Assembly: GCF_000002075.1 (NCBI RefSeq)
Contig: NW_004797344.1
Coordinates: 1-64,000 of the forward strand
Source: Aplysia californica
Lineage: Eukaryota
Length of the DNA stretch: 64,000 nt
Direction: 5' to 3'
Shown: piece after piece, positions 28,773-64,000 of the stretch
Layout: every line of letters begins with the position of its first letter
Numbering within the stretch: the first letter of the stretch is position 1
The notes under the pieces: model-generated
Database searches by the model: none
What the model saw: only the letters and a program-made list of their open reading frames with translations
Told to the model about the DNA's origin: nothing
Program-made: the position numbers and the translations under genes

Positions 28773-29495
28773 CTGTAATCAAAGAAAAGGACATAAAATG
28801 TCAAATTTCAATTTATATTATATTTTGACTGACATGGCATCCAATATCAATTCTTCTAATATTCTTTAGGATGTGGAACCCTTTCCTTGCTTTTTAAAGT
28901 TCAACCTGGAACCGTGCAATACAGACAGGACACCTGACTAGATTCTTCTACATTAACCTAAAAGCCTGAGACTTTCTGTTTCATATATTATAAAGAACTT
29001 AGTCAGTCATGTTTGTAAGTTCATTCAACTGGATCATCCACAATCATTTTAATTTAACCTTCAGGCAGAATATGTTTGGTCTTTATAAATTGTTTAAACT
29101 TCATTCCCCAGCGATGTTCACAGTAATCAAAATCAAATCTAACACTGTCAACTAAAATATGTATCATGTGTTAAAGCTAGGGTTAGGGTTTGAGGTAGGG
29201 TTAGGGTTAAGGTTTTTAAAAAAGTTAAGGGTAGAAGGCTAAGTTAGGGTTAGGGTTAGAAGGTCTCCTTTATTTTCAATGTGTTTGTTAGGTTGGTCCC
29301 TCATTACCGAAGTCCTTCTAAAGTTACTACATAATTATGGTAGGAGTAATATAGCCTAGTAGTTTGAATTTGCGACGAATTTAAAGTCATTCTTGAAAAA
29401 AAAAATGGTATGATACAGATTTAGATTAGATAAATATCTTCTAGGTTTAACGTACGTTAATTACTATTAGCAATTTTAGTATAGAGGTTCTTTAA

Positions 29496-30646
29496 CCCTA
29501 TCCGAACGTCCTGTGGTCATTTTGTACCCCCCCCCCCCTCGGTTGTATTCTTCACATTTTAGAATACTTCTTGTGCGAAGATCTCTTTGTGCGACTTTCA
29601 GTATTCGAAGTGATTATTCGGACGCGAGTCCGAATATGAAAAAATGTTATTCGGACTCTGATTCTTGTCCAGCATGACATCACTTCCGACTTCCTGTGAC
29701 TCGTGAATCCGGCTTCCTGTCCTGCCTCACTCGTGACTCGCCTCAGGCTGGGTAGAGACCGGGATCACTTCGGGCAAAAAGGCGTTTTGTGCAGGAGCCG
29801 AGTTTTAATCTTATGATGAATTTGAGGCCGGCCTGAAAAGTTATAGCGCTTCTAATACATGTTTATTTGTCAAGAGGTCATCAGAAGCAATTAAAGATGG
29901 CTCGTTAGCGTGTGTCGGGGTCGGATGGGCGGCCTCCACACGTGTGGCTGTGTGCGTGTCGGGGAGGGTGGTGGGGGGGCACTATCGGTCCGGGCTTTGA
30001 ACGTCGCATATGCGTCAGTCTTTTCCCCCCCGGCAACTGATCATTATTACAATAATAAGCTAGTCTTGACGTAGATCTACGTAATGAATTGTGCGCTGGT
30101 CTTAGGAATCAAAAGTTGCCGTATGCTCAGCTCTACACAGCAACACAACTTTTTCTTGGTAAACAATCGATATGACACAGGCTTGTGTATTTGAACGAAT
30201 CAGTCTTCTTTTTTTTTACACAGCTCATAATATGCAGGTGCTAGGTGGTCTGCTAATCTTCAATTGTACCTTTTTCTACAACAAAGAAAGTGGGAAACGT
30301 GGGGGGGCGCGTATCAATGAGGCGGCGGGCATTGGATCGGCAGATAAGGTGTGGGGTAAACTAAAAAATGGCGGAAAATTGGAAGCACTGAACGTTAGAT
30401 CTATAGAACGAAGACACTTCCTTTTTTCCGGACCCGAGTCCGAATAACATTTTTTCATATTCGGACTCGAGTCCGAATAACGACAGCCTTCAGTATTTCT
30501 CAAAAAATCATTTTGACAGACTGCTACTGCTATGCAAAGCGTGCATATTCGATTAACGAGTAAATTTCATCTTTAAAATAGAAAGTGGTGGCACAGAGTT
30601 CCCCTCGTCGTATGGATACGATAGTAAAACACTGCGTACGGATAGG
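29496..30646. mobile_element. piggyBac-like MITE (TTAA TSD) carrying a nested insertion
   Basis: TTAA|CCCTATCCGAACG..CGTACGGATAGG|TTAA. An uninterrupted relative lies at ~48110-48335. Confidence 0.8.
29606..30488. mobile_element. 883-bp non-autonomous DNA transposon with 9-bp TSD (Mutator-like by TSD length)
   Basis: TSD TTCAGTATT at 29597-29605 and 30489-30497. ~45-bp subterminal inverted repeats. Empty site seen at 48193-48201. Confidence 0.85.
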
Positions 30647-30650
30647 TTAA

Positions 30651-30812
30651 GAGACTGGACCTCTGAGCTTTAACGGCCATCTCCGAAAGCACGAGCCCAG
30701 TGTCAAATTCCTGTGTAAAGTGCCTTTCCTAAGGACACAACATTAGACCGAGCTGAGACTTGAGCCTCCAAACCCGTAATATCCCGAATATGAGTCCGGT
30801 CTAACCACTAGA
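30651..30812 (-). mobile_element. SINE fragment
   Basis: Core GTGTCCTT(A/G)GGAAAGGCACT shared with the SINE at 45460-45605. Confidence 0.55.
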
Positions 30813-30999
30813 TTAGATTCTAGGGCGATTGTTAAGGATGCCGCGTTTAATTCTGATGTGTGTTTTTCATAGCCTCAGGCATGTTTTGCTTTGGTCCCTA
30901 CCCCTAACCCTGGAAAATGTACATCGGAATAAAACGCGGGAATCTTAACAATCTCCTATTCTAGACCAAAGTCATTCGTGTAAAAAGTAAAAACGGAGA

Positions 31000-31192
31000 G
31001 TCTACGTACACGGTCATGTAGTCTCAGGGTCACGTACACGGTAACCGGGCAAGTAGCCTCCTAAATATCTACGTACACGGTAACCTGGCACCTCTAGCCT
31101 CAGTTTCTACGTACACGATAACTGAGCATGTAGTCTCAGTGTCACGTACACGGTAACCGGACATGCAAGTAATCTCAGGGTCACGTACACTA
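31000..31192. repeat. Minisatellite, ~30-38-bp unit containing ACGTACACGGTAACC
   Basis: Six ACGTACAC-containing units. Confidence 0.85.
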
Positions 31193-31279
31193 AGGCCGCG
31201 GTAAGCCTTAGACTAAGGCAGGCTAAGGCATAATAAGACATAAGAAGGCTAAACTTAAAGTTAAGTGTACTGTAAGGCT

Positions 31280-31570
31280 TCTCTAGACTTTTGATCTAGA
31301 TTTATAGATCTAAGTCTAGTCTCTAGAATCTAGATCGAGATTCTAGGATCTCGACTCTAGATCTAGATCTAGATTAGATCTACAAAATCAAGATATCTAG
31401 ATCTAGATTAGGCTAGTCTAGATCTAGAATCTAGATTATATAGATCTAGATGTAGATCTAGATCTATCTAGATCTAGATCTATATAGATATCTAGATCTA
31501 GATATCTAGATCTAGATCTAGATCTAGATCTAGAATAGATTTTATTAGAGAATTATTTTGTAGATTCTAC
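31280..31570. repeat. Irregular (TCTAGA/TAGATC)n array immediately 3' of the ENTPD exon-1 donor
   Basis: Seen directly. Confidence 0.92.
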
Positions 31571-31587
31571 AGTTTCTACCGACTCAC

Positions 31588-31595
31588 CGAGCCAT
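31588..31595 (-). CDS. ENTPD4: ENTPD4/7-like coding exon 1 (8 coding nt)
   Basis: aaaaATGGCTCG|GTGAGT joins exon 2 in frame to give MARIYLNCP, resembling the vertebrate ENTPD7/4 starts MARIS/MGRIG. Confidence 0.8.
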
Positions 31596-32594
31596 TTTTA
31601 GACTTTCCATACAATTCAATAAATTTCTTCAGAATTAGTTTCACTTTCAAATGAATTCATCGGATGAGGCCCATGTTTGTGACTAAAAAATCTCAGGCAT
31701 TTCTAAAGAGGGTGGCAGCCTGACACACCCTTGACTGTGCGGGGTCGGCAGTAGACGTGTACGTTTCCTTCGCAGCTGACAATGATCCCAGTAACCCAGT
31801 CGAACAACACATCACAAACGGAAAAGGAAAGTTGTTTTACGACATGTTCCTCTTTGCAGCTACCGCAAACAAAATCCGTTGGGAGGTCTTATTGAATTTT
31901 ACTTGAACAAGGGCAAAGGTTAGTCTCTATGAACTTTGACCGTGCGTTGAAAGTCGAAATTGTCTGATGTTATTGCCCGGCAGCCCGGTAGCCAAGATCA
32001 GTCAACTATCAAGCAGTTGTGTTACAGTTTCTGTGCATTCACGGCAATTTTCTTTCGCTTCATTTCTTTATATCACGATTGATTGACGAGGCAGTTGATG
32101 GTATTGGTATCAGATAAAACAACTTAGCCTAGATTATATGTTTTCTTTTTAGACTTCGTTCAAAGTCTAAATAGATTCTATTAATTTCCTTTTATTAGCC
32201 TACTTTCATCTCTCATGTAATCACTTGATTCGTTGTTGTAAAAGTGGCAACACGACAGGCATGAGAATCTTCTTTCCACATTACAGTACGCTGTAGTGTA
32301 GTAGTAGGGCCAACCATTTGAGCCATTTCAGATCAGACCAGGTATAATAAGTCAGACTTATTGTGAGTGTGCCCTTAGCTTATAGTAGACTCAGGATGAT
32401 CTTAATTATTTTAAGTAGATCTAATTATCTGTCAGTGTTGCTGTAGTAGTGTAGTGTAACTAGGCGAATCACGCGCTGAGCGAAAAAATAACAATTATTG
32501 AAAGATAGAAGAACAGGAGCCTATAAAAAGCTACATTATATCCTCAGTCTCCGTCAAAAATACAATAGCAACTTTTAGTGAATCACTGACAATC
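31596..32594. promoter_or_regulatory. Putative bidirectional promoter/5'UTRs between ENTPD and PEX11
   Basis: Divergent start codons 1.0 kb apart. CpG-richer core and two DR1-like sites. Confidence 0.65.
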
Positions 32595-32671
32595 ATGGGT
32601 GTGGATTCTGATTTCATGGACAATCTCGTGAAGTTTAATTCATCTGCAAGTGGGCGTGATAAACTTTTCAG
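32595..32671 (+). CDS. PEX11: PEX11 (A/B-type) coding exon 1
   Basis: MGVDSDFMDNLVKFNSSASGRDKLFR|GTAAA, the conserved PEX11 N-terminal GRDKLFR. The start could instead be the second ATG (32616). Confidence 0.88.
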
Positions 32672-32788
32672 GTAAACTCTTCTTCTTGTGCTCTTTGTTA
32701 CCTTTCTTTGACTTTGACAACTTGTACCAGTGAATATATGAAGAGAGATCAACAGAGTGGTATCTGTAAAGTAGGTCACTACGTAGTA

Positions 32789-35672
32789 CAGCAGTCTCCG
32801 CCTAAACACACGCCATACTAAAAAACGCTTTGCTCAAACGCATGCTTTGGTCTGTCAGCATATAATAGGTTTTTTGAGAGTGCTATATAATTTAGATGTA
32901 CAAATGCACGTTCACTTCTAAACGCATCATGCTTCAATACGTGAAACACGCCGACAGGTAAAGCTTGACAAGGAGAAATTTTCACAACAACCTATACAGC
33001 TCTTGCATAAGACAGGTCTATACCGGATATTTGGCGAGACTGCCCCTCACGCAGAACAAAGAGAATATAATGGACAGAGTTAGTTTTCACACCCAACTTT
33101 CCACAGACCCAAATCTTGGACTGGTCGGGTGATGTTGGAAGGGGGGGGGGGAGACGACAACTGAAATGCCTTTTGATTAGTCACTCGAAATGGGTCTTTC
33201 AGAGAATGTTTTTATGACTATGTGTTTCTGTGACTGATATGTTTACTTATTAGGCTTATGATGCGCAACATGCGTGAATGCTGTAGTAGAACACTAGAGA
33301 GGCTTGTTGATGATTGAAGTTTTTGTCAAGTAATCAGCTGCTTTCGAAGACCGTATCGTTCTACGAATTACAAGAGAAAAGTCTCTCAGAATGTCTGATT
33401 TTGATGTCATCCATGTATAGAGCATTGCATAAGTGGATATGCGCTATATAAATGCAATCCATTATTATTATACATATGTATAGTTGAAATAGATGAAAGG
33501 CAGTCGGGAGTGGCCATGGAAGTTGGAAAGCCGTGTGGCTGAGCACTTTTCCCTCTAGCACTATCACCACCAGTGTCCATTTATCTGTTCCCGACATTTT
33601 ATAAGTGCATTATATGTAGTACAGTTAGTCCGTCTTTCTGCTCCCCCACCCATTCAACGCCTTTGTATTTCTTTCCTTTATAATTCATAACCGCAGTCGG
33701 GGAATCCATATAAAAACAGTCACGTGTTGCCACTTAATCAACCAAAGTGACCCGCTCCCCGAAGGGAGGTCAGTAAAATACCCACTAAATTAAAAGTAGG
33801 AGAGTCTGCGATCTGCGAATGTGGACACGGCCAAGAGGATGTCAACCTTATCCTTCAGCGCTGCCTGCGCTACACCACCTTTCGTACACAGGCGTGGCAG
33901 AATGTGACTCCTCTTGAGAGAAAGCTCTATGGCAGTCTCTCAGATTTGAAGTGGACTGCACAGTTTGTGCGCGACCTTGGACTGACTGTCTAGCTGCTGT
34001 CATCAAGAATGAGGAAGAAACTAAAATATCAAGGAAATGAGATGAGTGCATCCTTTCCTCCCTTTGCGCAGGTCATGGCAACGCACACTCCGTAACACCC
34101 GCTAAGGAGCCTTCCTGAGCACTCTGTGCGTTTAAGCGGAGACTTTTGTACAGACTACATGCTAAATTTTTAGTTTTAGATTAGGAAAGAATTCCGTAAT
34201 TGACCACTTTGAAATAAAGTGTTAGGGTCAGGGTTAACACTGAAGGCTAGGGTTGGTTTGGGTTAGGATCTAGATCTCTTCTTTATTGTGTTTGTTAGGG
34301 GTGGCTGATGGTTGCTCATTACGGAAGTCCTTCCTCACTTACATGTTGAACTTGCTGTCCATAGTGGTCACCTGTACCAACCAGCCGCTGTACCATGAAA
34401 CCCTTGCGTTTTTCTTATATTTTTCACCTATCCATGGTGTTCATTATCATAGTGGCTCCTGTCCAATATGACCTTGAGACAATTAGGTCTCAAAACCTGC
34501 TCCTAGTCGTAGCAGTCGCTTGATACAATAAGTTTTCTGCCTATTCATCCTCAGGCTTAGCGTGTAGCTTATTCAATCAATCAATGCACAAAGGCGTTAG
34601 ATTTAGCAGTCGGTTGCCTAATTAGACCAGGTTTGTAAAAATACTACAATCTCTCAAAGGAAAAGATTTCTTTGTGCAAAAAAAATATTAGCCTTCACCT
34701 AAACGCACAGTGGCACAGTGCTCGGGAGGGCTCCTTGGCCTGTGCTTACATGAACCTGTACAAAGGGAGGAAGGGACGCAACCATATCATTTCCTTGATA
34801 TTTTAGTGAGGGTCATTTTGGCTGATAATGTGATGAAACGTGTCTGTTTTGTGAAGGATTCCCCGACTGTGTTTATGAATTATGAATACAAAGGCGTTGA
34901 ATGAAGGAGGGGAAAAGCAGAAAGACGGACTCAGTGTATTGAATATATACGCTAATTAATGTCAGGAACTGACAAGAGGAAACTACTATTGGTAATAGTC
35001 ATAGAAGTAAAAGCGCTCAGCCATGTGGCTTTCCAAGTGAACACTCCCGACTGCCTGTCATCTATTGCAGCTGGGTAAATGCATTGATGGCTGCAGAGTC
35101 AGACACTCCGAGAGACTTTTCTCTTGTGATTCGTTGAACAAGAACATTGTTCTTCAAGTGCAACTGATTGCTTCTCAAATCTCTAAAATCCTACAGAGGC
35201 CTATCTAGTGTTCTACAGCATTCTCATACATGTTGCACATCACATTACGTATGCTGTCACTCAAACACCAGTCAGAAACCTTCTCTCAAAGATGCATTTC
35301 GAATGACATATCAAAAGATATTTCAGTCTCCCCCCTCAACATTCACTTGACCTGTCCTAGACCTATTGTCTGAGGAAAGTTAGGTGTGAAAACGCTCTCC
35401 ATCACTCTCTTTGTTCTGTGTGAAGGGGAATTCTCACCAAATATCTGGTTGTCCGGTCTTGTCTTAGGCAAGCTGTGTAGGCTGTAGCGCACATTTCCCC
35501 ATGTCAAGCTTTACCTGTTGGTGTGTTTCGCGGATCCAAGCGTGCGTGAAGAAGTGACCGTGCGTTTGTACACATCTGAATTGTAAAATAGCAAAAATCC
35601 TGTCAAATGACGAAAGTGTGCATTTGAGCAGAGGGTGCTTTTGTATGGCATCTGTTTATACAGAGACTACTG
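32789..35672. mobile_element. Foldback-type TA-flanked DNA element with ~1-kb diverged inverted arms
   Basis: TA|CAGCAGTCTCCGCCTAAACA..TGTTTATACAGAGACTACTG|TA. 32789-34170 is colinear with the reverse complement of 34680-35672. Confidence 0.8.
33790..34019 (+). mobile_element. 3' fragment of an I/Ingi/Nimb-like LINE nested in the foldback arm
   Basis: Decayed C-terminal zinc knuckle (SAICECGHGQEDV..ILQRCL), GAA-rich tail, flanked by ACTAAA. Absent from the opposite arm. Confidence 0.6.
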
Positions 35673-37570: not shown

Positions 37571-37881
37571 TCAGTGTCATTCCACAAATGCCAAAGTCAT
37601 TTATATTGTAAGTTTTGAGAAAATGAAATTAAGAAAAAAAAATCGCTTAAATTTCAGAACCGTGACTTGGGCACTTGTTATTATTGATTAAAAACTAAGA
37701 AGTCAATAATGAAAAAACAAAGCTGTACTGTAATGTAAATGTAAAATACACCCCTTAATGTCTCAATTCAAATAATGGCTTTGTCTTAGAAATCACCAGA
37801 GACTGATTTGGGCTATTGTGGAATGACGCTTATGAAAATAATTTCTCAGTGAACTGACTTCTTGTTTATTTTGTTTTTCAG

Positions 37882-38447
37882 TTCTTCGACTCGGCAAGAG
37901 TGTGGACTTTATGCATGGGGCTCTTCGCAGCATCCACCTGACTGACTCTGTGTTACGCTACACAATAACTTTGTCAAAGCTGAATCAGGCTGTTTATTTG
38001 TTGTTTGACCATATAATATGGGCAGGTCGTGTTGGGCTGGCTATGATAGACAAAGACAAGTGGAGCAAACTGTCGGCTCAGTTCTGGATTGTGACTCTGA
38101 TACTGAACCTCGTCCGAGATATTTATGAAATTTGCATTGTGTTATCAAGTGAACTGAAGGCTCGCACAGAAAGATCTTCAAGAAGTTTGTATAAAAATGG
38201 TTTATCTGATCATAAGACTGCTAGTAAACCCATTCTTACAAATTCACAGCTGGTCAAGAAATGTGTGGAAGAGAATAAGCCACTTTTCCTGGATCTTGTG
38301 AAAAACTTGAGTGACCTTGTCCTGCCTTTAGAAGCCCTTGGACATGTCAAAGCATCTCCAGGAGTGCAGGGTCTTGTGGGAACAATTTCTTCAGTTATTG
38401 GTGTCTGGCAATCATGGAACCCCTTGCTCCGTTTGGTGCCTTCGTAG
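37882..38447 (+). CDS. PEX11: PEX11 exon 3 (to stop)
   Basis: FLRLGK..IHLTDSVLRYTITLSKLNQAVYLLFDHIIWAGRVGL..LDLVKNLSDLVLPL..GLVGTISS. Total 759 nt = 252 aa. Confidence 0.95.
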
Positions 38448-51273: not shown

Positions 51274-53942
51274 ATAGCTTGTACTCATTAAAATAGACTA
51301 TAAATGGTGAAAACCACTTTAGATACTCTATCGTTGAGTCCAAGTGTTGATAACAAGCATTAAAAATCATGTTATTAAGCTTTCAAAGCTTGTATATATA
51401 GATCCTTTTTATCCATGCTTCTCGGGGGAATCTTTGTTCAAGCATGGACAGGGTGAGGGACTTCTTGCATAATTATACACACATCGATTCCTAATCCTAT
51501 GCAAAGAAACAAATGTGATAATAATTGGAAGTGACAGGATGTCAAAATACTGTCCGAATCTATGAGAAAAAAAAAAATGTGAACGAACATGTAAATAAAT
51601 CTGGCGTCACTTTCGCACCCAGTCAGGGCCTCAAATATAGGCGAACAAGCTGAAACAGTACATTCCTGGGGTCATCCAATCACAGGGGGCTTCCTGTAGC
51701 AAGTTTCGGTTTACCTTTGGGGGCAAGGCAGATAGAAGATATAAAGCTTTAAAGTTGACACACCTATTTTCGTCCAAATTTTGACCAAATGGTAATATAT
51801 TACTCTAAGTCTAGAGGCTACTGAGAACCCTTCGAAATTGAGAGGATTGCTCGTTTCCACCCCAGTTGTACAAGAAAGTTGACAGGATGCCCGCCATTCT
51901 TTCGATATCCTACAGTTGGTAAGATTGTACTTTACCGGACCACCGGTCGGAACTACTTTCGCTATGGCGCCCTTGGGGTCTAGTGGCCTGCTATTCTTCC
52001 TTTCCAAGCTCCCCTACTCACCCTGCTACTCAGTTTTCTACTTCCTCATCCTTCGACTGCCAGCAACCAACCGATGTCTCTTACCGGATTTTTCAGTCAT
52101 CACGACCATGCCACGTGCCCTTTGACCCACGACCCTGACACCTAGAGGCTAATTGGTCAATCTAATAACGTGGTCCACTATTCTTATTTGCTCGCGACCC
52201 TGCGAGGCTAGGCCTACTCCTGATCCGGTAAAGTACAAAGGAGGGCGAGAGATGCGCACGAGAGCTCATTTGCATAATTGCAACCCCCTCTGCCCTGCTC
52301 TTTACTTGGCGAGTGCTGCAAAGCAAGGCTCGGCCTGTTCCAACTCTAATTTTAATTAGTTCTACCCCGATCGTCCACTTACACATGGTCCGCTCATATT
52401 ATTGTTTATGTGTGTTTTTTAACATAATTATTATTGTTGCCAGGGGGCTAGCCCCTCAGAAACCCCCCAGTTGTTATATTGATATGTCCAATTGACCGCT
52501 CATGTTATCGTTTTATGGCATGTGTGTCCCCTGAAGCCCCCCCCCCCCCCCCCCCCCAACCCTCTCTCTCTCCCTCTCTCTTTCTGTCTGTCTATCCCCT
52601 TTCTCTTTCCTTCTCTCTCTGTTTTTCTCCCCCCCCCCTCTCTTTATTTTCTCTGTCTGTCTGTCTGCCAGTCCCCCCCCCCCCTTCCCTCTTTCTCACT
52701 CTCTTTTTCTCTCTCCCCCCCCCCCCACAACCTTCTCTCCCCTTCTCTCTCTCCCCCCCCAACCTTCTCTCTCTCTCTCTCTCTCTCTCGTGTGCGTGTG
52801 CGTATTATGTCTTTGGCCCAGAACGAGATATTCATTCTTTCATTCAAACTATTTGCAAGCGTATTTCATATCAAGTATGCATTTTTATACAGTAAAGAGA
52901 TAAGGAAAGTTGATAGCACGGTTATCTTTTAAAAAATATTTCTTGCAACTACGAGACAAGAACTGAAAACGAAAGCTCTCAATATTATTGCCAGGTCTCG
53001 TTATCTGAGAAACTCATTATTGGTCAATGTTCCCTTTACTCAACTTTACTGTCTTATTTTGTTCTGCACTAAAACTGCGCTTGTGTTTATATATACAGAC
53101 AGACAGACAGACAGACAGACAGAGAGATTTTAGATCAGTTCCTACACTCAATTCATTCTTTTGTTTCAGCCTCATAATCGTCTCTTTCAATGACATTTGC
53201 TGATGCTGATGCTAGCGTCTAATCAACGAGATGAGAGTGCTATTTCGGCACTACCCCAGTCTCAACAGTTATCGAGCTCAGAAAATGTTTTTTGAACACC
53301 TTTTCAAAATACTTTGATGCCCTAGACTCAATTTCTCAAGATTACCCCAGCCTACTGCAATGGCATCCACATTCTTCAGCTCATCACACGACAGTTCGAA
53401 CATTGATAGGCACTAGTGGTGTAGGCATAGTGATGGAAAATATCGTGAGAGTGATAATAGTGAAGAGGAACCTTTAGATGAGGATGAACTTGCTCCTCAC
53501 CCCATTGCCAAAAAGAAAATTTCACCAATGAAGAAAGATAAAGAAGTAGATCTAGGTGACAATGACGGGTATGCGTTTTTTATTCAGCCTTTGAGAACCC
53601 ACCATCAAATAAAGTTTCAGCAAAACCACGTATTGCAACATTTAAAACCATTTATAATAACCTAATGATAGATTTTTTAGAAATGTGTGCATTTTCTAGA
53701 TCTAATCTAGATCTTATATATGACATTCCAACATGGCAGGCGTTACCTTAGCAACACAAAAGAATTTTCAAAATTTTACTTCATGACTTAATTATCCACT
53801 CTTTTTATATTGATGCTAACCAATAATGCTACCACATTTGTAAGCTTAGTTTCTTGTTCTTAACGAATTTCAAAATTTCCCCCTCATCATGCCTTAAACC
53901 GGCAGTGGACGCTCCGTCTAGTTTAGTCTAAACTAAGCTTGA

Positions 53943-54192
53943 GTGCCGTGAACGTAGCCTCAACAGAGCCTGCAAACTGCATTCAGGGCGCCGTGAACGT
54001 AGCCTGCCAACTAGAATCTACATTCACGGCGCCGTGAACCTAGCCTGCAGATTACGTTCACGGCGCCGTGAACGTAGCCACTGCGTTTCTTATTTTCCTT
54101 TTGGCGCCGTGAACGTAGCCTGCCAGTGCCAACTAGAATCTACATTCACGGCGCCGTGAACCTAGCCTGCATTCCGTGAACGTAGCCACTAC
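53943..54192. repeat. Tandem array of (CG)GCGCCGTGAACGTAGCC with palindromic TTCACGGCGCCGTGAA cores
   Basis: About 7 units with a higher-order duplication. Confidence 0.85.
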
Positions 54193-54303
54193 TCAAGTCT
54201 ACTGCGTTTCTTATTTTCCTTTTCGGGCTTTGATTTAGATCTAGGCATCGGGAGCTCAGCTAAAAACTTGAGGGGGCTGTCTATACCGCATCAAATTTCT
54301 TAC

Positions 54304-54400
54304 CAACTTTCTTGGCATAAGTTCTGGCTACTGTAAATTTGCTGAACGTCATATTATTAGAAAGTCCCCGTAAGGCAAGACTTCTAAAGGACGCCGCCAT
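54304..54400 (-). CDS. MRPL54: MRPL54 exon 1 (mitochondrial presequence)
   Basis: MAASFRSLALRGLSNNMTFSKFTVARTYAKKV|GTAAG. Arg/Ser-rich with no acidic residues and an R-x-Y-A cleavage-type motif. Total 411 nt = 136 aa. Confidence 0.88.
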
Positions 54401-55599
54401 GTTGTTTTTCAATACTACTCCAAAACAAGAATTCTCTAGGTCTATTTGCCTTGCTAAGAAAACAAAATAAGTAATTTTTTTTAACAGTCTTTCTGACTTT
54501 TCTGTAATGTGTTTTGCTGCTTCATACATATGACTACTATGATATTAAAAATTTGAAAAGCTTAAATACCTTAAACAACTGTAATTTTCACCCACAGAGG
54601 CATCGCCGTTCATTTAGTTCGAAACTAAATATTTTGCTAGATTCCAGATGGCACACGAAAAGTAGCACCGACAAGAAAAAACGAATAGAACGTTTTCCAA
54701 ATGTCACTGAATCAACCGGACACAGAATTTTAGCCTTGTGATCGTGAATGGGTTTTGTAATCTTGACGTCTTTATATCTGTATTCCTTTATATAATTTAC
54801 ATATTGCAATTTCGAAGCCTTCCCGTACACTCATGTGTCTCAGTTATGCAAAACTAAAAGGTGATCCACGACATTATAATGAAATGAATGGTGGTGTAGC
54901 TGGTTTGGCCTCGTTTGTATTGTTGTTGAGTTCGGTCCGTTTTGGGGTGCTGACACAAACTCAAAATCCACATTACAGATTAGAATTTAGAATCTAGATT
55001 TCTAGATCTAGTTTTAGTCTATTTCCTATGATTTGTTGTGTATAGGCAGGTGGGGGTGGGCGGGCATAGTTTTACTGTTGTGATACTGCATGTCATGTCG
55101 TAAGAGACGACTAAACTAAAGAAAGGCGGGCACTTTTTCGGCAGTTCCCACCCCGCAGTTCTTATTCACCGGTTTTGGCCCCAAGAGTAGGCGGTTTGCC
55201 CCCTTTCCCCAATAAAAATATGGTGGAGGGGGGGGGGGGTTCAGGGGGCATGCCCCCCTGAATTTTGCCATAATCTTTGCAGTTGTTCGGTTTGATATCT
55301 TAGCTCGCCGCACATCAAATGATAGATCTAGGCTCAATACTCAAATAAGGGGGGTGGGAACTACCGAAAAAGCACTGACTTAAACAGGCCTTCAAAAGGT
55401 GGGTTTGAACAGTTTGATCTCCCGAAAAAGCCAGATTGCAGAGGGCCAACTACCCAACCCAGTAAAAACAGTCAGTTACAGAAAAACACAGCATTTATTT
55501 TACGATCTTGGGAGATGATGGAGGAGCTTCTGCATTCATAGGAACAGTGAAGGAAAGCGGACAGAGCCTAAAGGACTCTCCTTACCTGAAATCTTCTCG

Positions 55600-57680
55600 T
55601 GTTGAACAAGTCTCTCCGGATTACGTTGTGGGATTTTCACACCATGTATGAAGCAGGAAAAAGTTCTCAAGTATCACAAGAGATGAAGAGATACAGGCTG
55701 CACATACTAGGAGTCAGCGAAACACTGGATACAGTCTGGACAGAAGCAGCTCAGCTCGGGGGAACTAATTATATATAATTGTATTCTGGGAGGGAAGACA
55801 CCATGCGGAAGGGGTGGGAATCGTTTTGAGTAAGTATGCACAGAAGTTACTTAGAGGATGGGAACCACACAGGGAGAGGATCATAATGGCTTCATTCACT
55901 ACAAAGAACAGGAGCCTCAACATGAATATATAGTCCAGATCTAAGCCCCAACAAATGATACTTCGGATGAAGACAAAGATGCTTTTTACAGCCAGTTCCA
56001 GGGGTCATTGACAAACTACCAAGGAAGGATGTTAACATCATAATGGGAGATGCCAATGCCAAGGTTGGTCAGGACAACATAGGTTATGAGTGAATTATGG
56101 GACAAATGAATGCGAATGGTGAGCGATTTGCAAATCTGTGCTTTCAACAGTTTTGTTATTGAAGGCTGTTTTTCCCCACAAGAGGATTCACAAGGCTACT
56201 TGGGATTCGCCAGATGGAGTGACAGAGAACCAGTTAGATCATTTTTGTATCTCTCGTAGGTTCAGGCGTTCTCCGGAAGATGTCATAGTAGTTCAGAGAG
56301 AGGCAGACATAGGATCGGATAATCCTCTGCTGTTGGCAAAACTCAAGCTTTGACTCAAAAGCAGCACTGGAACCAAAAGAACGAAGTTCCAAATAAGTCT
56401 CTTGGACGGACACAAGAAAGAGGAGTTTCAGCGGCAGCTGAGGTACAGATTTCAGCCTCTAGCCGATCTAAGTGGAGAGGACATGGAGGTGGAGATATGC
56501 TGAACCAAGGTCAAAGAGGTCTTTACATCAACATGTCAAGAAGTAGGCCTACTTGGTGCGAAGAAATGGGAGCTCAAGGAATGGGTTAGCCAACACTCAT
56601 TGGATTTAATTAGGTTTAGAAGACAACTGAAGGCAGAAGGGAATGCAAATAGAAGAAAAGGATCACATTGAAGAAGTACATGTCAAGAAATCACTAAGAA
56701 ACAACAAGGGGGAATTCATGAACAGGCTGGTAGAGACAGCAGCGGTAGGAGGGCACATGCGAATCCTTTACTAGACCACAAAGACTCTTGCTGTAAAATA
56801 TGGGAAACCTGAAGTACCGGAAAAGGACCAAGAGGAGAAAACTATTTTTGGAAAGGAAGCTCTGTCAAAACGATGGGCAGAGCATTTCAACAGTCTCCTG
56901 AACGGACCACCACCGAGTAACCCACAAAACATCTTTCCAGCAAGAAATGAGTTATCAATCTGCTGTGACGGTCCTTCAAAACAAGAGATTCTGGATGCCA
57001 TTAAGAAGCTGAACAAAGGTAAAGCGGCCGGTCGTGTTCAGATTCGACCAGAGGCCCTAAAAGCAGATGTCAATGTGACGGTAGACCTCCTCCCATTGTT
57101 TACCAGGATCTGGAATGAGAGCAAGTTCCGGAAGGATTGGAAAGAAGGACACCTCGTGAAGCTTCCAAAAAGGGAGATCTCTGCAACTGCAGCAAGTACA
57201 GAGGGATCACTCTTCTCCCAATACCAGGTAAGGTCTTCAACAGAATCATTCTGGAGAGAATCAAGACTGCAACAGATTCAAGACCACTGGATAAACAGGT
57301 TGGTTTCCGGAAAAACCGCTCATCACCGACCAGATTGTCGCGCTGAGGATCATTGTGGAACAGTCCCTGGAGTGGTCTCAGTTGATCGTCAGTTTTCATG
57401 ACTATGAGAAGGCCTTTGACAGTACAGACTGAGCAACGCTATGGAGGATAATGAGACATCACGGAATCCCACAGAAGTTGGCGAACGTCATCATGAGCAT
57501 GTACGAAGGGACAAGTTGCAGGGTTGTACATGATGGCCAGCTCACTGACAGGTGTGAGACAGTGTCGTTTACTATCACCTTTTCTCTTCATTTTGGCAGT
57601 CGATTGGCTGATGAAGGAAACCACCAGAGGACACAGAAATGGCATACAGTGGACCCCATTGACACACTTGGACGATTTGG
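55600..57680 (+). mobile_element. Decayed RTE LINE (APE endonuclease plus 5' part of RT)
   Basis: TMYEAGK..EMKRYRLHILGVSE, MGDANAKVG, HKATWDSPDGVTENQLDH, GSD, WKEGHLVKLPK, DYEKAFDS. Many frameshifts and stops. Confidence 0.92.
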
Positions 57681-58399
57681 GTTAGAAAATCTTATCCCGT
57701 TTAGATGGGCGGGGCACTTGACATTGATGTGGTCTGAGGACCAAACACATGGGTTCGCAAAATATTTTTTTGCCCAGACAGGAATGGATAACTCGATCTT
57801 GTCAGGGATTGCTCCTATCATCTATGTCATGATGATTTTACCAACGCTGGTCAGAGCATGCTACCAAACCGTCTTGTGTAATCCAAGTAATCATATAAAT
57901 TAAATGATCACTTCTCAATCCCTTCGTTCAACTTCCATGTTCAAACTACCACAGTCACACATACACACACATGCACACAAACATAATTCACATACTTTAT
58001 GATCCAATGTATTGCTACACCCTCACATGGCTAGATTCGAGGAAGTTTTAGTGCCTTATATCTATGCACACTAACCTACACAGGTAGTGTAATGGCGTGT
58101 CTGGATACCAGCAGTGATGTGTCATGCAAAGTGAGAAGTTCCTTGGTGGCCTCGTTACAACCTGATACTGTCCATGACGATGGGTGTATTGACTACTATG
58201 GTGGGCAGAAGGCGATTTGATTTTGAATTTGAGACAGCTGAAGAGCAATCTTGACAAATGCTTTTATACTTATTGGGTTTTTAAGAAAACGTTGTTGCCA
58301 TTGATACAAAGAAAATATAGCGATTTCAGAGAATGGCTTATTGTACGGGCTATCAGTGATTTTGAGTATTTGTGTTATAATCTGTGCTTGTCTGTACGT

Positions 58400-58990: not shown

Positions 58991-59275
58991 GTACACGGTG
59001 GTCAAGTTCAGTATGTGGAAGTGGAAGGCGAACATTTGGTGCTCCTTAATTTAAAAAAGATTATAAAAAGATGCTTTGAAAGATGGCATTGATGTGGATG
59101 AGCCATAGTGACAAGGCCCTGTGACACTGTGTACTGAACTCAGTCTTGACATGCACGTGTGCAGTAATCTTTTTATTGTAAAAGATCAAATTCAAGGGAA
59201 AGGCAACTTTCAAACAGCTTTATGGTTTGTGAAATGGTTAGATTGCTGATTAATTATATGTGATTAGGGACATAA

Positions 59276-61221
59276 CCAGGAATGAATGGATTTCACAAAA
59301 CTCTCTTGACAAAGTCAAAAGAAGAAGAGAGCTGAAGGCCCAAGTCAACAACAGCCGTACCCGAACTGAGAAACTCGCTGCACAACAAGAGTACACCGAA
59401 GTAAACCGGGAGGTAAAGAATTCCATCAAGAAGGACAAGAATACCTACCTGAATGGCCTGGCCGAAAAGGCTGAGAAAGCAGCAACAGACGGGCACTTAC
59501 GGATTGTACACCAGACTACAAGAACTCTTTCAGGTAGGTTCAGCAAGCCCACTCTACCAGTGAAAGACAAAGAGGGAAAGACTATCTTCAACCCAGAGGG
59601 GCAACTTAACCGATGGAGAGAACACTTTGATCAACTATTGAACAGACCACCTCCAGAAAACCAACCAGAAATTCTTCCAGCCAGAAATGACCTCCCAATA
59701 GTCATGGAACCACCTTCAAGAGAGGAAATTGCAGCCGCTATAAAAACACTGAAGTCCCACAAGGCAGCTGGTCCCGACCATATACCACCGGAAGCCCTTA
59801 AAGCAGAGAAAGATAGGTTTGTGGAAATTCTCTATACTCTGTTTGAAAAGGTTTGGCAAAAGGAGGAAATACCATCAGACTGGAAGGAAGGACACCTAAT
59901 CAAGCTGCCAAAGAAAGGAGATCTCAGCAATTGTAACAACTACAGAGGCATTACACTCCTGTCATACCTGGGAAAGTCTTCAACAGGATACTCCTGGAGA
60001 GAATCAAGCTGGCAACAGATGAGAAGCTTCGAGGAAACCAGGCAGGATTTCGCAAAAACCGATCATGTGTGGACCAGATCGCTACTCTGCGTATCATTGT
60101 TGAGCAATCGCTTGAATGGAACTCTCCACTCGTGGTCAACTTCATTGACTATGAAAAGGCGTTTGACAGCGTGAACAGGGAAACTCTGGAAACTCATGCG
60201 GCATTTTGGAATACCTGAGAAAATCGTCAAGCTTGTGAAGGCCACCTACGATGGAACAAACTGCCAAGTCTTCCACGAAGGACAACTCTCAGAACCATTC
60301 CAGGTACAGACAGGAGTGCGACAAGGATGCTTGCTCTCAACTTTCCTCTTCATACTGGCAATTGACTGGGTCATGAAAGAAGCCACCAGAGGCAAATGTA
60401 ATGGAATACAATGGATCCCTTGGCAGCAGCTGGACGACTTAGACTTCGCCGATGACCTTGCGCTGCTCTCTCACACACATGCTCAGATGCAAGAAAAGAC
60501 CAAGGAACTCAACAGGCTATCAAGGAGTGTTGGCCTACGTATACGCCCAGGCAAGTCAAAAGTAGTGAAGCTAGGAAAAGTTTCAAGCCCTTCTGTGACA
60601 GTGGAAGACACTCCCCTGGAAGAAGTGGACTCCTTTACCTACCTTGGAAGTGTCATCGATGGTAAAGGTGGAACCGAGGCAGACGTTAAAGCAAGAACCG
60701 CCAAGGCAAGGTCAGCCTTCAAGCAATTTTCAAAAATCTGGAAAGCAAGCAACATCTCGCTGCGCACCAAGATTCGACTCTTTAACTCCAACGTCAAGTC
60801 TGTGCTCCTCTACGGCTGCGAAACTTGGAAGACAAAGAAAACAGTACTGAATAAAGTCCAGACTTTCATCAACAGATGTATGAGGAGTATTCTAAGAATT
60901 AAGTGGCAGGATAGAATAAGAAATGAAGAACTGTGGGAAAGGACAGGACAAAAGGATATAGAAGTAGAAATAGGACTAAGAAAGTGGCGATGGATGGGAC
61001 ACACCTTAAGAAAGCCCAGCGGAAACATCACAAGACAGTCACTGCAGTCACAACGAGCACGAGGCAGGGGTAGGCCACGAGAAACATGGAGGAGATGCGT
61101 GGAAAGGGACATGAGAGAAATGAAGCTCACTTGGAACGAGCTTGGAAGGATGGCTCAGGACAGATAAATGGAAGGAGCTTGTATGTGGCCTATACCCTGC
61201 CAGGGGTGAAAGGCATTGATG
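59276..61221 (+). mobile_element. 5'-truncated, comparatively young RTE LINE
   Basis: RT motifs NYRGITLL, QAGFR, DYEKAFDS, GVRQGCLLS, LDFADDL, FTYLGS. Frameshifts at ~59965 and ~60186. 10-bp TSD AGGGACATAA at 59266-59275 and 61222-61231. Confidence 0.95.
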
Positions 61222-61633: not shown

Positions 61634-62209
61634 ATGGCTGATGGAGGAGACTCAGACAATAATGAGAGGCCCAATTCTGGATTGCCTCGTCCTCAGAGTG
61701 TGGGTAATCAGTGGACTGGTTCCTCAGCCTTACAAAGGGCAGCCCTCGATGATCAGGTCATGGCCTCGCCATCATCAGCTGGTGCACCTCGCTCATCATT
61801 CTCTTTAATTTCATCTCCATTTGCACGTGGTGTTCGGGAGGCTGATCCTAGCTCATCTCACTTCATTTCTCCGAGCAAAGAAGGGGAAATACCCATGGAA
61901 TGTTCTCCAATGAGTGTGAAAAAGTCCAGCTCTGCAACGGTAGATACCGGTGCGAGTCCTGTTTTACCTACCACACCTTTGTCATCCAAGGCTTCGGAAA
62001 GTCAGGGGCCAAGTGTTGAGGCACATTCTCCGGAGCCACAAAAATCCGGCACGCATTTGTTGTTCTCCTCTGATGACAGTGACGAGGGCTACAGCTTGAA
62101 GCCTGCAGACATCTTTGCTGGGAGTCCAGACTCGCCAGACACCAGCCCGGTGTTGAAGACTATAAATCTGAACAGTTTTGACACAGAGGATGATGGAAAT
62201 GACCCTGGG
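61634..62209 (+). CDS. CDC25: CDC25-family (M-phase inducer phosphatase) first recognisable coding exon
   Basis: Acceptor 9 nt upstream of the ATG (exon starts 61625). S/P-rich with many SP/TP sites and DSDEGYS / DDG motifs. Donor GGG|GTAATG, phase 0. Identity is inferred from the downstream exons. Confidence 0.65.
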
Positions 62210-62488
62210 GTAATGATGCTTTCTGTTTTCAAAATTTGCCTCTTCTTCTTTTGTTCTTATTTTGTGACTGTTTTGTAAAATTTACTAATTTGTTTAAATT
62301 GGCTAGGTATATCAATCAATTATGTTCTCTAATGATTTTTAGATTATTTATTATTTTTTACTGATATTTTTTGTCTTTTCTCAGCCATTTATATTGATTT
62401 TGAATTTCAGTTTAGCTGAAATTTTTCAACATTGGACCAGAATAAGGATTGAAAAGATTGTTTTGACGTTATTCAATTTGGATAAATA

Positions 62489-62923
62489 CAGTCAAACCCC
62501 GTTTTACATTCGGTACTTATCAGCTATGCAATGATAATCTCTTCTGCAAGCTAGTACTTGTCGCTGATTTGCCCTGTCCCCTCCTTCCTTCCTTATCACC
62601 CTTGTCTTGTAAAGATATCAGAGTGGGTGGTTGGCGTATGCTGTGGTGTGGTTTGCTTCTTCTTTCCTATCAAACATCTATTGTCCTTATCTCCCCTTCT
62701 TTTTATGTTTGTTACTCTCTTGTAACACCTCATCTTCTGGCGCTCGTATGACCTCATGTAGTTGCGAGCGCCCGTAAAACCTCTACTAAAACTAAAAATG
62801 ATATCAGGCAAAATGCGTTCGACAAGTAGCCTCTGAGTAGCCTCTGATTGGGCAGCAATTTTCAGTTTCAATTTATGGGCAATGAGACAGTTTCAATGTG
62901 GGCAGTATAGCGCGGTTTGACTG
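62489..62923. mobile_element. TA-flanked MITE containing a nested retroposon tail (62622-62790)
   Basis: TA|CAGTCAAACC..GGTTTGACTG|TA. Confidence 0.7.
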
Positions 62924-62975
62924 TAATAAAGCTATGTTGTTTTAACTGTTTTTCACTCTCTTTTTTTTTTTCAAG

Positions 62976-63137
62976 GATTTTTTGAGCAGACAGACCGATC
63001 AAAGTTTCAGAAGATGTCGATCTCAGGAGATCCGCAAAAATTATAACGACTTGTCCAACACACCGCCCAATTCTTTCTCCAGTAGTGGTAGCAGGAGGAG
63101 TTTGTTCAAAAGACCTTTGGACGTGCCAGTTAAAGAG
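62976..63137 (+). CDS. CDC25: CDC25-family exon (missed by the ORF track)
   Basis: Long poly-T acceptor. DFLSRQTDQSFRRCRSQEI..RRSLFKRPLDVPVKE|GTCAGT, 162 nt, phase 0-0. RxxS and FKRP motifs are typical of the CDC25 N-terminus. Confidence 0.7.
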
Positions 63138-63608
63138 GTCAGTGAATGAGAAATCATGATATATTAGATGCATTATTTTCTTTTGTTCATAGAGAAAGCC
63201 TAAAATCTGTTCATGTTGGTTCTAGTCAAAAGTCAAAATGTAGAGTGAACCAAATTCTTCTACTTGAGTAAAGACTCGTACACATCTTTCAGTGTCTTGT
63301 GAAACCTGAGAACTTTGGTATTGGAGCTGAAGTAATGTTAGAAAACTATTTGCAACAGGTCATGTTTCATGCTTAGGGTTGGAATATTTCATAAACAGTG
63401 GTCCAAAAGTGGTCAAGATACAATTGTTTGAAATTATCTGTTTTTTAAGGGTAATTTATGTGTATGACTGGTGCTTGCAAATTATGAAAGGTTTCACCAT
63501 TCACTTCAGATTTCATGTCTGATCTCACTTTATACGAGATATGAACTTGTGTTTTTGCAGAAAAGTTTCTCAAAACTTTATATGAGATATGAACTTGTGT
63601 TTTTGCAG

Positions 63609-63809
63609 AAAAGTTTCTCAAAACGACTCAAAGATGGCGCTAAGTTCATATCAGAGGTACCAGAAACGGAAGCAGAAGCTGGTGATAATGGTGCAACAGC
63701 AACGGCAACGGCATCTCCCTGCAAAGAGGTCTCAGATACTGATCATGAGCGTATTCAGTCTGCTGTTGATTCACTACAGTCCGGAGAGCTGATAGCAGAT
63801 GGATCAAGG
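63609..63809 (+). CDS. CDC25: CDC25-family exon leading into the catalytic domain; gene continues beyond the window
   Basis: KSFSKRLK..IQSAVDSLQSGELIADGSR resembles the LIGDFSK motif preceding the CDC25 rhodanese domain. Alternative acceptor at 63561. The catalytic HCX5R is not in the window. Confidence 0.7.
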
Positions 63810-64000
63810 GTATATATATATATACTGTAGTGTCTAGTTTCAGCTGATTTTGCCATGTGATGATTCAAAGTGAGTTTATAAAACGCGCTTTCGATTAGTG
63901 TCATTTAGAGTTACTTTTTGGCACCAGTTTTATGTTTTGAAGGTTGCGTTTTGAGAAATTTTCTTTACAGCAGTGATTATTTCCGTTGGCCTTATTATTA

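Follow-up and report, generated by a model that had tools for sequence, protein, structure and literature searches.

Genes, repeats and the array in the window

The window, by which is meant the whole 64,000-nucleotide stretch of Aplysia californica DNA analysed here, contains a head-to-head promoter shared by an ENTPD-family gene on the minus strand and a PEX11 gene on the plus strand. Exon 1 of the ENTPD-family gene (31588-31875, minus strand) carries its ATG at 31595-31593, codes for a product starting M-A-R and has its 5' end at or beyond 31875, while intron 1 (28773-31587, minus strand) opens with the donor GTGAGT at 31587-31582, a spliced X19 contig joining 31588 to 28772, and exon 2 matches GDA1_CD39 (PF01150). 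The likely divergent exon 1 of PEX11 (32452-32671, plus strand, ATG at 32595) was assigned by reading rather than by Pfam; it is covered by an X19 contig from 32452 to 32667, with about 580 bp between it and the ENTPD 5' end, and the last exon of the gene (37878-38444) matches PF05648. Raw RNA runs X23 and X24, with less than 3-fold coverage of the ENTPD and PEX11 exons, listed no splice joint or start there. The promoter region (31541-32816) is rich in indels between individuals, with 47 gap letters in a 1.3-kb contig (X7).

Within ENTPD intron 1 lies a degenerate (TAGATC)n array (31280-31569, no strand assigned) of stacked TA-(GA..TC)-TA units, which are likely excision scars with some extension by slippage. 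Given the position of the donor, the array begins about 20 bp inside the intron: its outermost unit (31561-31569) stands 18 bp inside, its purest stretch begins about 50 bp inside, and the whole lies some 300-600 bp downstream of the ENTPD 5' end. The word TAGATCTA occurs 32 times in the window, against 1.04 expected and a maximum of 5 in 100 shuffles, with 16 copies within 31305-31532, and TRF reports a period-6 array at 31305-31534 with 73% matches and 16% indels, in agreement with the irregular array of about 290 bp just inside the intron described by an earlier, sequence-only reading. When 31280-31569 is cut at each TA, 49 units result, namely TAGATC (16 times), TA (six), TATC (four), TAGAT (three), TAGAATC and TAGA (two each) and 16 single variants. 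The array is adjoined by a TAAGGC/TAAGAC-rich spacer (31190-31280, no strand) that is not of the GA..TC scar type; the same reading had noticed this stretch correctly but had also placed TAGGCTA in it, a word found instead inside the array at about 31409. Repeat matches stop near 31190, where the spacer is abutted by a dispersed repeat with internal tandem units (30990-31190, no strand; 70-86% matches to several loci). On the other, unique side of the array, 31600-32600 matches 0 of 205 loci, which speaks against the possibility, raised beforehand as fatal to the footprint idea, that the array is an internal part of one dispersed transposon family.

Single copies of TAGATCTA elsewhere do travel inside repeats. 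An approximately 900-bp dispersed element with subterminal hairpins (29590-30488, no strand), which we take to be Helentron-HINE-like and to carry YY1-like and Ets-like words, holds its own TAGATCTA at 30072 and 30396, built into the repeat. It has 352 anchor matches and is nested in another, transcribed repeat (29541-30646), many reads and contigs skipping 29589-30489. The flanks of its copies (L176-L205) hold 3.1 TAGATCTA per kb, with clusters beside 18 of 30 copies, which suggests that it, too, either inserts into promoter-like chromatin or gives rise to it. In a second repeat family (L146-L175; 984 anchor matches) an Ets-plus-YY1-like cassette is present, in many cases as tandem or inverted pairs, and several internal TA sites are scarred.

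Two lesser clusters had also been named in the sequence-only reading, and both are present. A looser one (53547-55330, no strand), with five TAGATCTA and variants, surrounds the likely first exon of MRPL54 (minus strand, ATG at 54400-54398), a downstream exon of which (46404-46760) matches PF08561; the small one (992-1124, no strand) has one TAGGCCTA and two TAGATCTA (1006 and 1117). Beside the former cluster, what is likely the first intron of MRPL54 holds a 41-bp tandem repeat of 4.7 copies (53980-54170). Broken frames resembling reverse transcriptase, from non-LTR retroelements, were recognised by reading at 56123-57900 and 59254-61167, and further exons of a plus-strand gene, presumably YrdC-like, at 61634-63830, with no TAGATCTA within 6 kb of the first coding exon seen.

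Birth and variation of the units

Ancestral states were inferred from copies of dispersed repeats, the 900-bp element serving as the reference family for births. Judged against empty homologous sites, the GA(n)TC-TA units derive from a single TA: across 22 copies of this element single TA sites have become TA-GATC-TA, TA-GATC-TA-GATTC-TA or TA-GATTC-TA-GATC-TA, several births being double or triple already, and in two of them (L189 and L192) the flanks offer no GA/TC template to copy. An 8-bp duplication of hAT type with P-nucleotides was considered by reading and rejected, as it misfits the same two births. Over 1.94 Mb of DNA, 27/182 repeat-borne words of the GA(n)TC or stacked type were non-tandem gains at plain TA sites, as against 24/1524 other words of 4-5 nt, the comparison comprising 496 other word classes; the 27 gains include shared subfamily events and represent about 22 distinct sites, with direction taken from the majority.

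Variation within arrays is confined to the junction of GA and TC. Among 168 interrupting units 146 begin with TA, none of 16 substitutions hits the TA, and 40 of 41 one-base insertions sit at the junction between GA and TC, 39 of the 41 being GAATC or GATTC with A and T filler used symmetrically (21 and 18). The words TAAGATC, TAGGATC, TTAGATC and TAGATCC, which are equally prone to slippage, occur 1, 0, 0 and 0 times. Near clusters, GATC is enriched 31-fold (by selection), GAATC/GATTC and GAGATC 20-fold each, GACTC/GAGTC 14-fold and GAAATC 11-fold, whereas TA-GAG-TA near clusters is not enriched. Such variation is the pattern of end-joining scars and not of slippage alone, much as had been supposed when the array's units were likened to imprecise footprints.

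An alternative is that the array is a common microsatellite with a palindromic hexamer unit, lengthened by replication slippage or hairpin repair, and is for the pogo elements no more than a favoured place to land. It draws on the 2150 overlapping matches of a pure 26-mer in 927 Mb of genome, on the strong self-complementarity of the array and on length differences between individuals within 31150-31408 (+15 letters in an X7 contig, +7 in an X6 contig), a comparison made with contigs of four other runs, none spanning the array core and with 31435-31540 skipped. One strand of the array is foldable at a computed -75.3 kcal/mol (z -8.4), the structure having an ensemble frequency of 0.0003, which suggests a capacity to fold and only that. 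Slippage probably does contribute to the pure runs. As a full account it is weakened already by units that arise at single TA sites, where growth from a pre-existing tandem seed would be expected, and by insertions gathered at one junction, where interruptions spread over the unit would be expected; the agreement of the word with the ends of a resident element (below) would moreover have to be chance. We regard it as quite improbable.

Scars of other kinds were seen as well. TA-CATG-TA, a Tc1-type scar, was gained twice at plain TA (L270, L282), and CAG-ended TA elements are present. A pogo family (L249-L252) ends TA-GGG...CCC-TA, from which a two-base scar would be TAGGCCTA, a word whose enrichment near clusters is 3.8-fold and of which two gains at TA were seen.

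GAGT-ended pogo transposons as the likely source

In a search for source candidates, 20 of 123 DDE_1 matches were examined, several of which sit within arrays. Seven transposase-bearing elements belonging to several families, 3.7-5.1 kb long, all read TA-GAGT...ACTC-TA, with GA and TC as the first and last two bases in 7/7 and with ATC or GAC outside the left TA in 6/7; two bases kept from each end would therefore give TA-GA-TC-TA. DDE_1 (PF03184) is found in 4/4 of the source-element proteins and a PHD finger in 3/4, the D-D spacing being 35, 36, 35 and 35, within the pogo range DD29-56D. Natively open frames of 925 residues (L319) and 857 residues (L317) remain, the first with HTH_psq as well as HTH_Tnp_Tc5 and the second with HTH_Tnp_Tc5 and DD36D. 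The terminal inverted repeats (TIRs) match at 21/24 positions in L319 and L322 and at 17/24 in L332, an element that sits outside any scar and whose ORF has no PHD match in Pfam; in the L316/L317 family, the ends of which rest on a two-copy alignment, the TIR is about 4-10 bases. Relatives of the transposases, at 29-54% identity, occur in Aplysia californica, other gastropods and molluscs, a coral and a fungus. In L316-L322, L324 and L328-L330 the DDE domain is separated from the PHD finger by long linkers of low complexity that differ from family to family (Pro/Ala or 5-residue repeats) and by a coil rich in Lys and Glu. Excision driven by these transposases is the origin of the scars that we infer, from the ends and by analogy.

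The main difficulty is that the A/T filler of GAATC/GATTC scars is not the third base of GAG..CTC ends, which may stem from untemplated addition or from an undetected family. One could argue that the footprints are real but stem mostly from an unfound GAA/GAT-ended TA element or a nuclease, the GAGT clade being a later squatter: GAATC/GATTC outnumber GACTC/GAGTC near clusters by about 5 to 1 (154 against 31), the C-TA-G bias is less marked at birth sites than at the sites of resident elements, and few GAGT ends are left. For a GAGT origin, about 40 element ends have to account for roughly 1.5 x 10^5 TAGATCTA (extrapolated from 34 copies in 20 random loci totalling 169.5 kb), a disproportion that calls for activity over a long time as well as slippage and passive copying. 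Against another source stand the absence of TA-flanked GAA/GAT termini from 83 terminus candidates in 1.54 Mb, the lone GAA candidate being internal to a repeat, and the other ends of the Tc1-type elements examined; the scan recovered CAG, CGAGG, AACT and GGG ends but is a weak one, because it missed the GAGT clade too. The symmetry of the filler would also fit untemplated addition. A different source is accordingly unlikely, if somewhat less so than slippage.

Several candidates were tried and rejected. Of 150 Tc1-type (DDE_3) loci listed, the 30 top loci plus 20 matches end in AACT, CAG, CTG, GCC or nothing recognisable, not in GA. A terminus candidate reading TA-GAAAAGGTCC (46 matches) proved internal to an older repeat, and scans for TA-GA TIRs over 1.25-1.54 Mb of loci found no terminus.

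Elements sitting in likely scars

The target preference of the GAGT-ended elements was assessed with a genome-wide pattern confined to TIR sequence of one subclade, with no flank included, which returned 30 ends against 0 for the control. Of 28 distinct ends, 27 abut TA, 25 C-TA, 17 TC-TA and 13 TAGATC-TA, that is, an existing TAGATCTA, which 0/42 Tc1 ends and 68/23048 background TAs (0.3%; 11.8% of TAs within array zones) do. A second family supplied 10 further ends and was left out of this count because its search pattern included flank. Symmetrised over 11 two-ended sites, the target has C at -1 and G at +1 in 20/22 cases and the consensus TAGATC-TA-GATCTA, although the two ends contributed by an element are not independent, and C325 is paired ambiguously. 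The outer flanks of element ends hold 2.7 TAGATCTA per kb, as against 0.24 in Tc1 flanks.

Duplication of the target is directly visible, empty copies of the flanking repeat having one TA where L352 and L354 have two. At a homologous TA in one repeat the different states can be compared: the site is empty in L173, twice scarred in L047, L031, L359, L189 and L017, three times scarred in L016, L052 and L045, and occupied by an element end in L337. The scars at the L337 site are likely older than the insertion, because most copies share them; scars beside a resident element could in general be younger than the element.

Association with promoters and a predicted histone reader

Genome-wide, the YY1-type motif CAAVATGGCGGC (1074 matches, against 42 for the reversed control) was used as what we assume to be a proxy for gene starts. 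From the first 30 motif loci, 9 were dropped as repeats or duplicates, and clusters, defined as at least 3 TAGATCTA within 500 bp, were found at 7/21 of the remainder as against 0/48 random 3-kb windows (12 of 60 having been dropped for N; p=1e-4). The density of TAGATCTA is 1.75/kb in the first kb downstream of the motif and 0.63/kb upstream, over a background of 0.20/kb in 20 random 10-kb loci, and the motif lies within 1.5 kb of 7/28 element ends as against 5/120 random windows. At loci encoding the N-terminus of Ras-family proteins (40 of 44 matches) the density is 0.45/kb, with clusters at 13/40 versus 2/20, which is not significant (p=0.067). Compound genome patterns with arrays on either side of the motif gave 161 (control 16) and 152 (control 32) overlapping matches, many in repeats, and were discarded as evidence of array direction, being repeat-dominated and giving none; around 20 arrays, the noise in CpG o/e profiles was too great for promoters to be called. 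Taking the start-motif enrichment together with the Ras result and the two-sided compound patterns, the link to promoters postulated earlier is therefore supported, though by proxy: it holds for the start motif and falls short of significance for the Ras set.

Such a distribution might also call to mind a binding array, a set of sites selected for their recognition by a factor of GATA type or one peculiar to the lineage, comparable to the YVGATCBR element of plants, to which TAGATCTA conforms and which acts dose-dependently within 500 bp downstream of the start (PMC11525189). The density peak in the first kb downstream of the start-motif proxies would suit this explanation, whereas the duplication of TA at birth and the elements within arrays are accounted for by neither selection nor binding, 14/21 start-motif loci lack a cluster, and the region is length-polymorphic between individuals. 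That the array exists as a set of selected binding sites is very improbable, the least so favoured of the explanations weighed; scars may later have been co-opted as such.

If the words are scars, their place near promoters could reflect a property of the transposase. The best solved matches of its PHD finger are KDM7, KDM5A/B PHD3, TAF3 and Spp1; KDM7, KDM5B PHD3, TAF3 and Spp1 bind H3K4me3. The C4HC3 zinc ligands and an aromatic cage expected of an H3K4me3 reader are present, and both tryptophans, invariant in 5/5 copies at 31-80% identity, align with Trp18 and Trp28 of KDM5A, which alone form the H3K4me3 cage (PMC9814790). On sequence grounds the PHD finger of the transposase is thus predicted to read H3K4me3, and the chances that it directs insertion to promoters appear about even. 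Passer, a paralog-free pogo element with DD35D, likewise integrates preferentially at the 5' ends of genes and at active promoters and has a palindromic TA target (PMC9976928), from which it follows that promoter bias may not require a PHD finger; by analogy, open chromatin alone may suffice.

A proposed self-feeding cycle of insertion and excision

The array is best explained as a stack of excision scars left by self-feeding GAGT-ended pogo transposons ending TA-GAGT...ACTC-TA, a reading to which we give a probability of roughly 0.78. The sequence-only reading had likewise proposed self-feeding TA footprints, and it is supported by the gains at plain TA, the junction-centred variation and a resident pogo clade whose ends match the scar and which sits in it. 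The proposed cycle would start with elements which, as observed, duplicate TA, begin with GA and finish with TC. Excision, to judge from Tc1/pogo biochemistry, would keep two bases per end, end joining then yielding TA-GA-TC-TA, or TAGATCTA, and in some cases adding a filler base or losing one half. The target of occupied sites is by association the palindrome GATC-TA-GATC, which the scar itself would rebuild; since a scar supplies GATC beside a fresh TA, scars would stack, each visit improving the target. A C-terminal PHD finger on H3K4me3 nucleosomes is predicted to focus visits just downstream of active starts, where scars in first introns would be tolerated. Pure runs would lengthen by slippage, and other repeats would passively copy single scars.

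A broader proposition, that a pogo clade equipped with an H3K4me3 reader, and preferring as its target the very sequence it leaves as a scar, has over time built up a palindromic microsatellite, specific to its lineage, around active promoters, and with it a heritable sequence record of germline H3K4me3, is put forward tentatively, the odds being somewhat against it. Were the PHD finger to act as predicted, this would be a cut-and-paste transposase that brings its own means of targeting promoters, and the density of scars would provide an alignment-free map of germline-active promoters in gastropods. By the cycle, microsatellites could arise without a seed for slippage, and a strong promoter-proximal "motif", one that motif-finding programs would label a transcription-factor site, would have its origin in mutation; if true, the cycle could also seed genuine regulatory motifs. 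With other termini (GG..CC, CA..TG) the same loop, if true, would account for hitherto unexplained promoter words framed by TA in other animals, in diatoms and in oomycetes. The parts that lend themselves to testing can be named: the open transposase frames of L319 and L317, their ends, the predicted scar and the predicted histone reader.

Comparison with known systems

Each of the ingredients, excision footprints, pogo elements and PHD readers, is known. Their combination, with a scar identical to the target, promoter arrays and a transposase bearing a PHD finger, did not turn up in the literature searched, which lay outside subscription journals, Repbase and Dfam and showed no gastropod TAGATCTA arrays, scar-built arrays or PHD-bearing pogo elements. 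[quoted passage not shown] The word PHD has 0 hits in the available text and searched supplements of the pogo surveys PMC7386202 and PMC7325037, one of which includes six Aplysia pogo sequences. KDM5A PHD3-type readers (PMC9814790) have the C4HC3 pattern and both cage tryptophans in common with the transposase, although here the predicted reader is fused to a mobile transposase with intact termini.

Among promoter words, plant YVGATCBR is the same word, likewise downstream of the start and in several copies, but is a GATA-bound enhancer with functional proof (PMC11525189), whereas for the Aplysia words a scar origin is supported; "transposon" has 0 hits in the text of that source that was available. 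The linker 6-mers of teleost hypomethylated domains (PMC5607494) are likewise unexplained short words at accessible promoter DNA, and "transposon" again has 0 hits in the part of the article at hand; a common origin is a lead only. Passer is alike in being a pogo element that favours start-site chromatin and a palindromic TA target, but in the accessible part of PMC9976928 nothing equates its target AAGTACTT with a scar of its own, and no PHD finger is named.

Close parallels are the footprints of IS630-Tc1-mariner and pogo elements, such as the Tc1 footprint taCATGta cited in PMC3520976 and the excision footprints of 0-4 bp of Passer (PMC9976928). In these as in Aplysia, TA is duplicated around at most 4 bases (here two per end) and the target is palindromic and centred on TA. 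The known footprints are rare and single, whereas the likely scars of Aplysia number on the order of 1 x 10^5, are stacked, and rebuild the target that the elements occupy.
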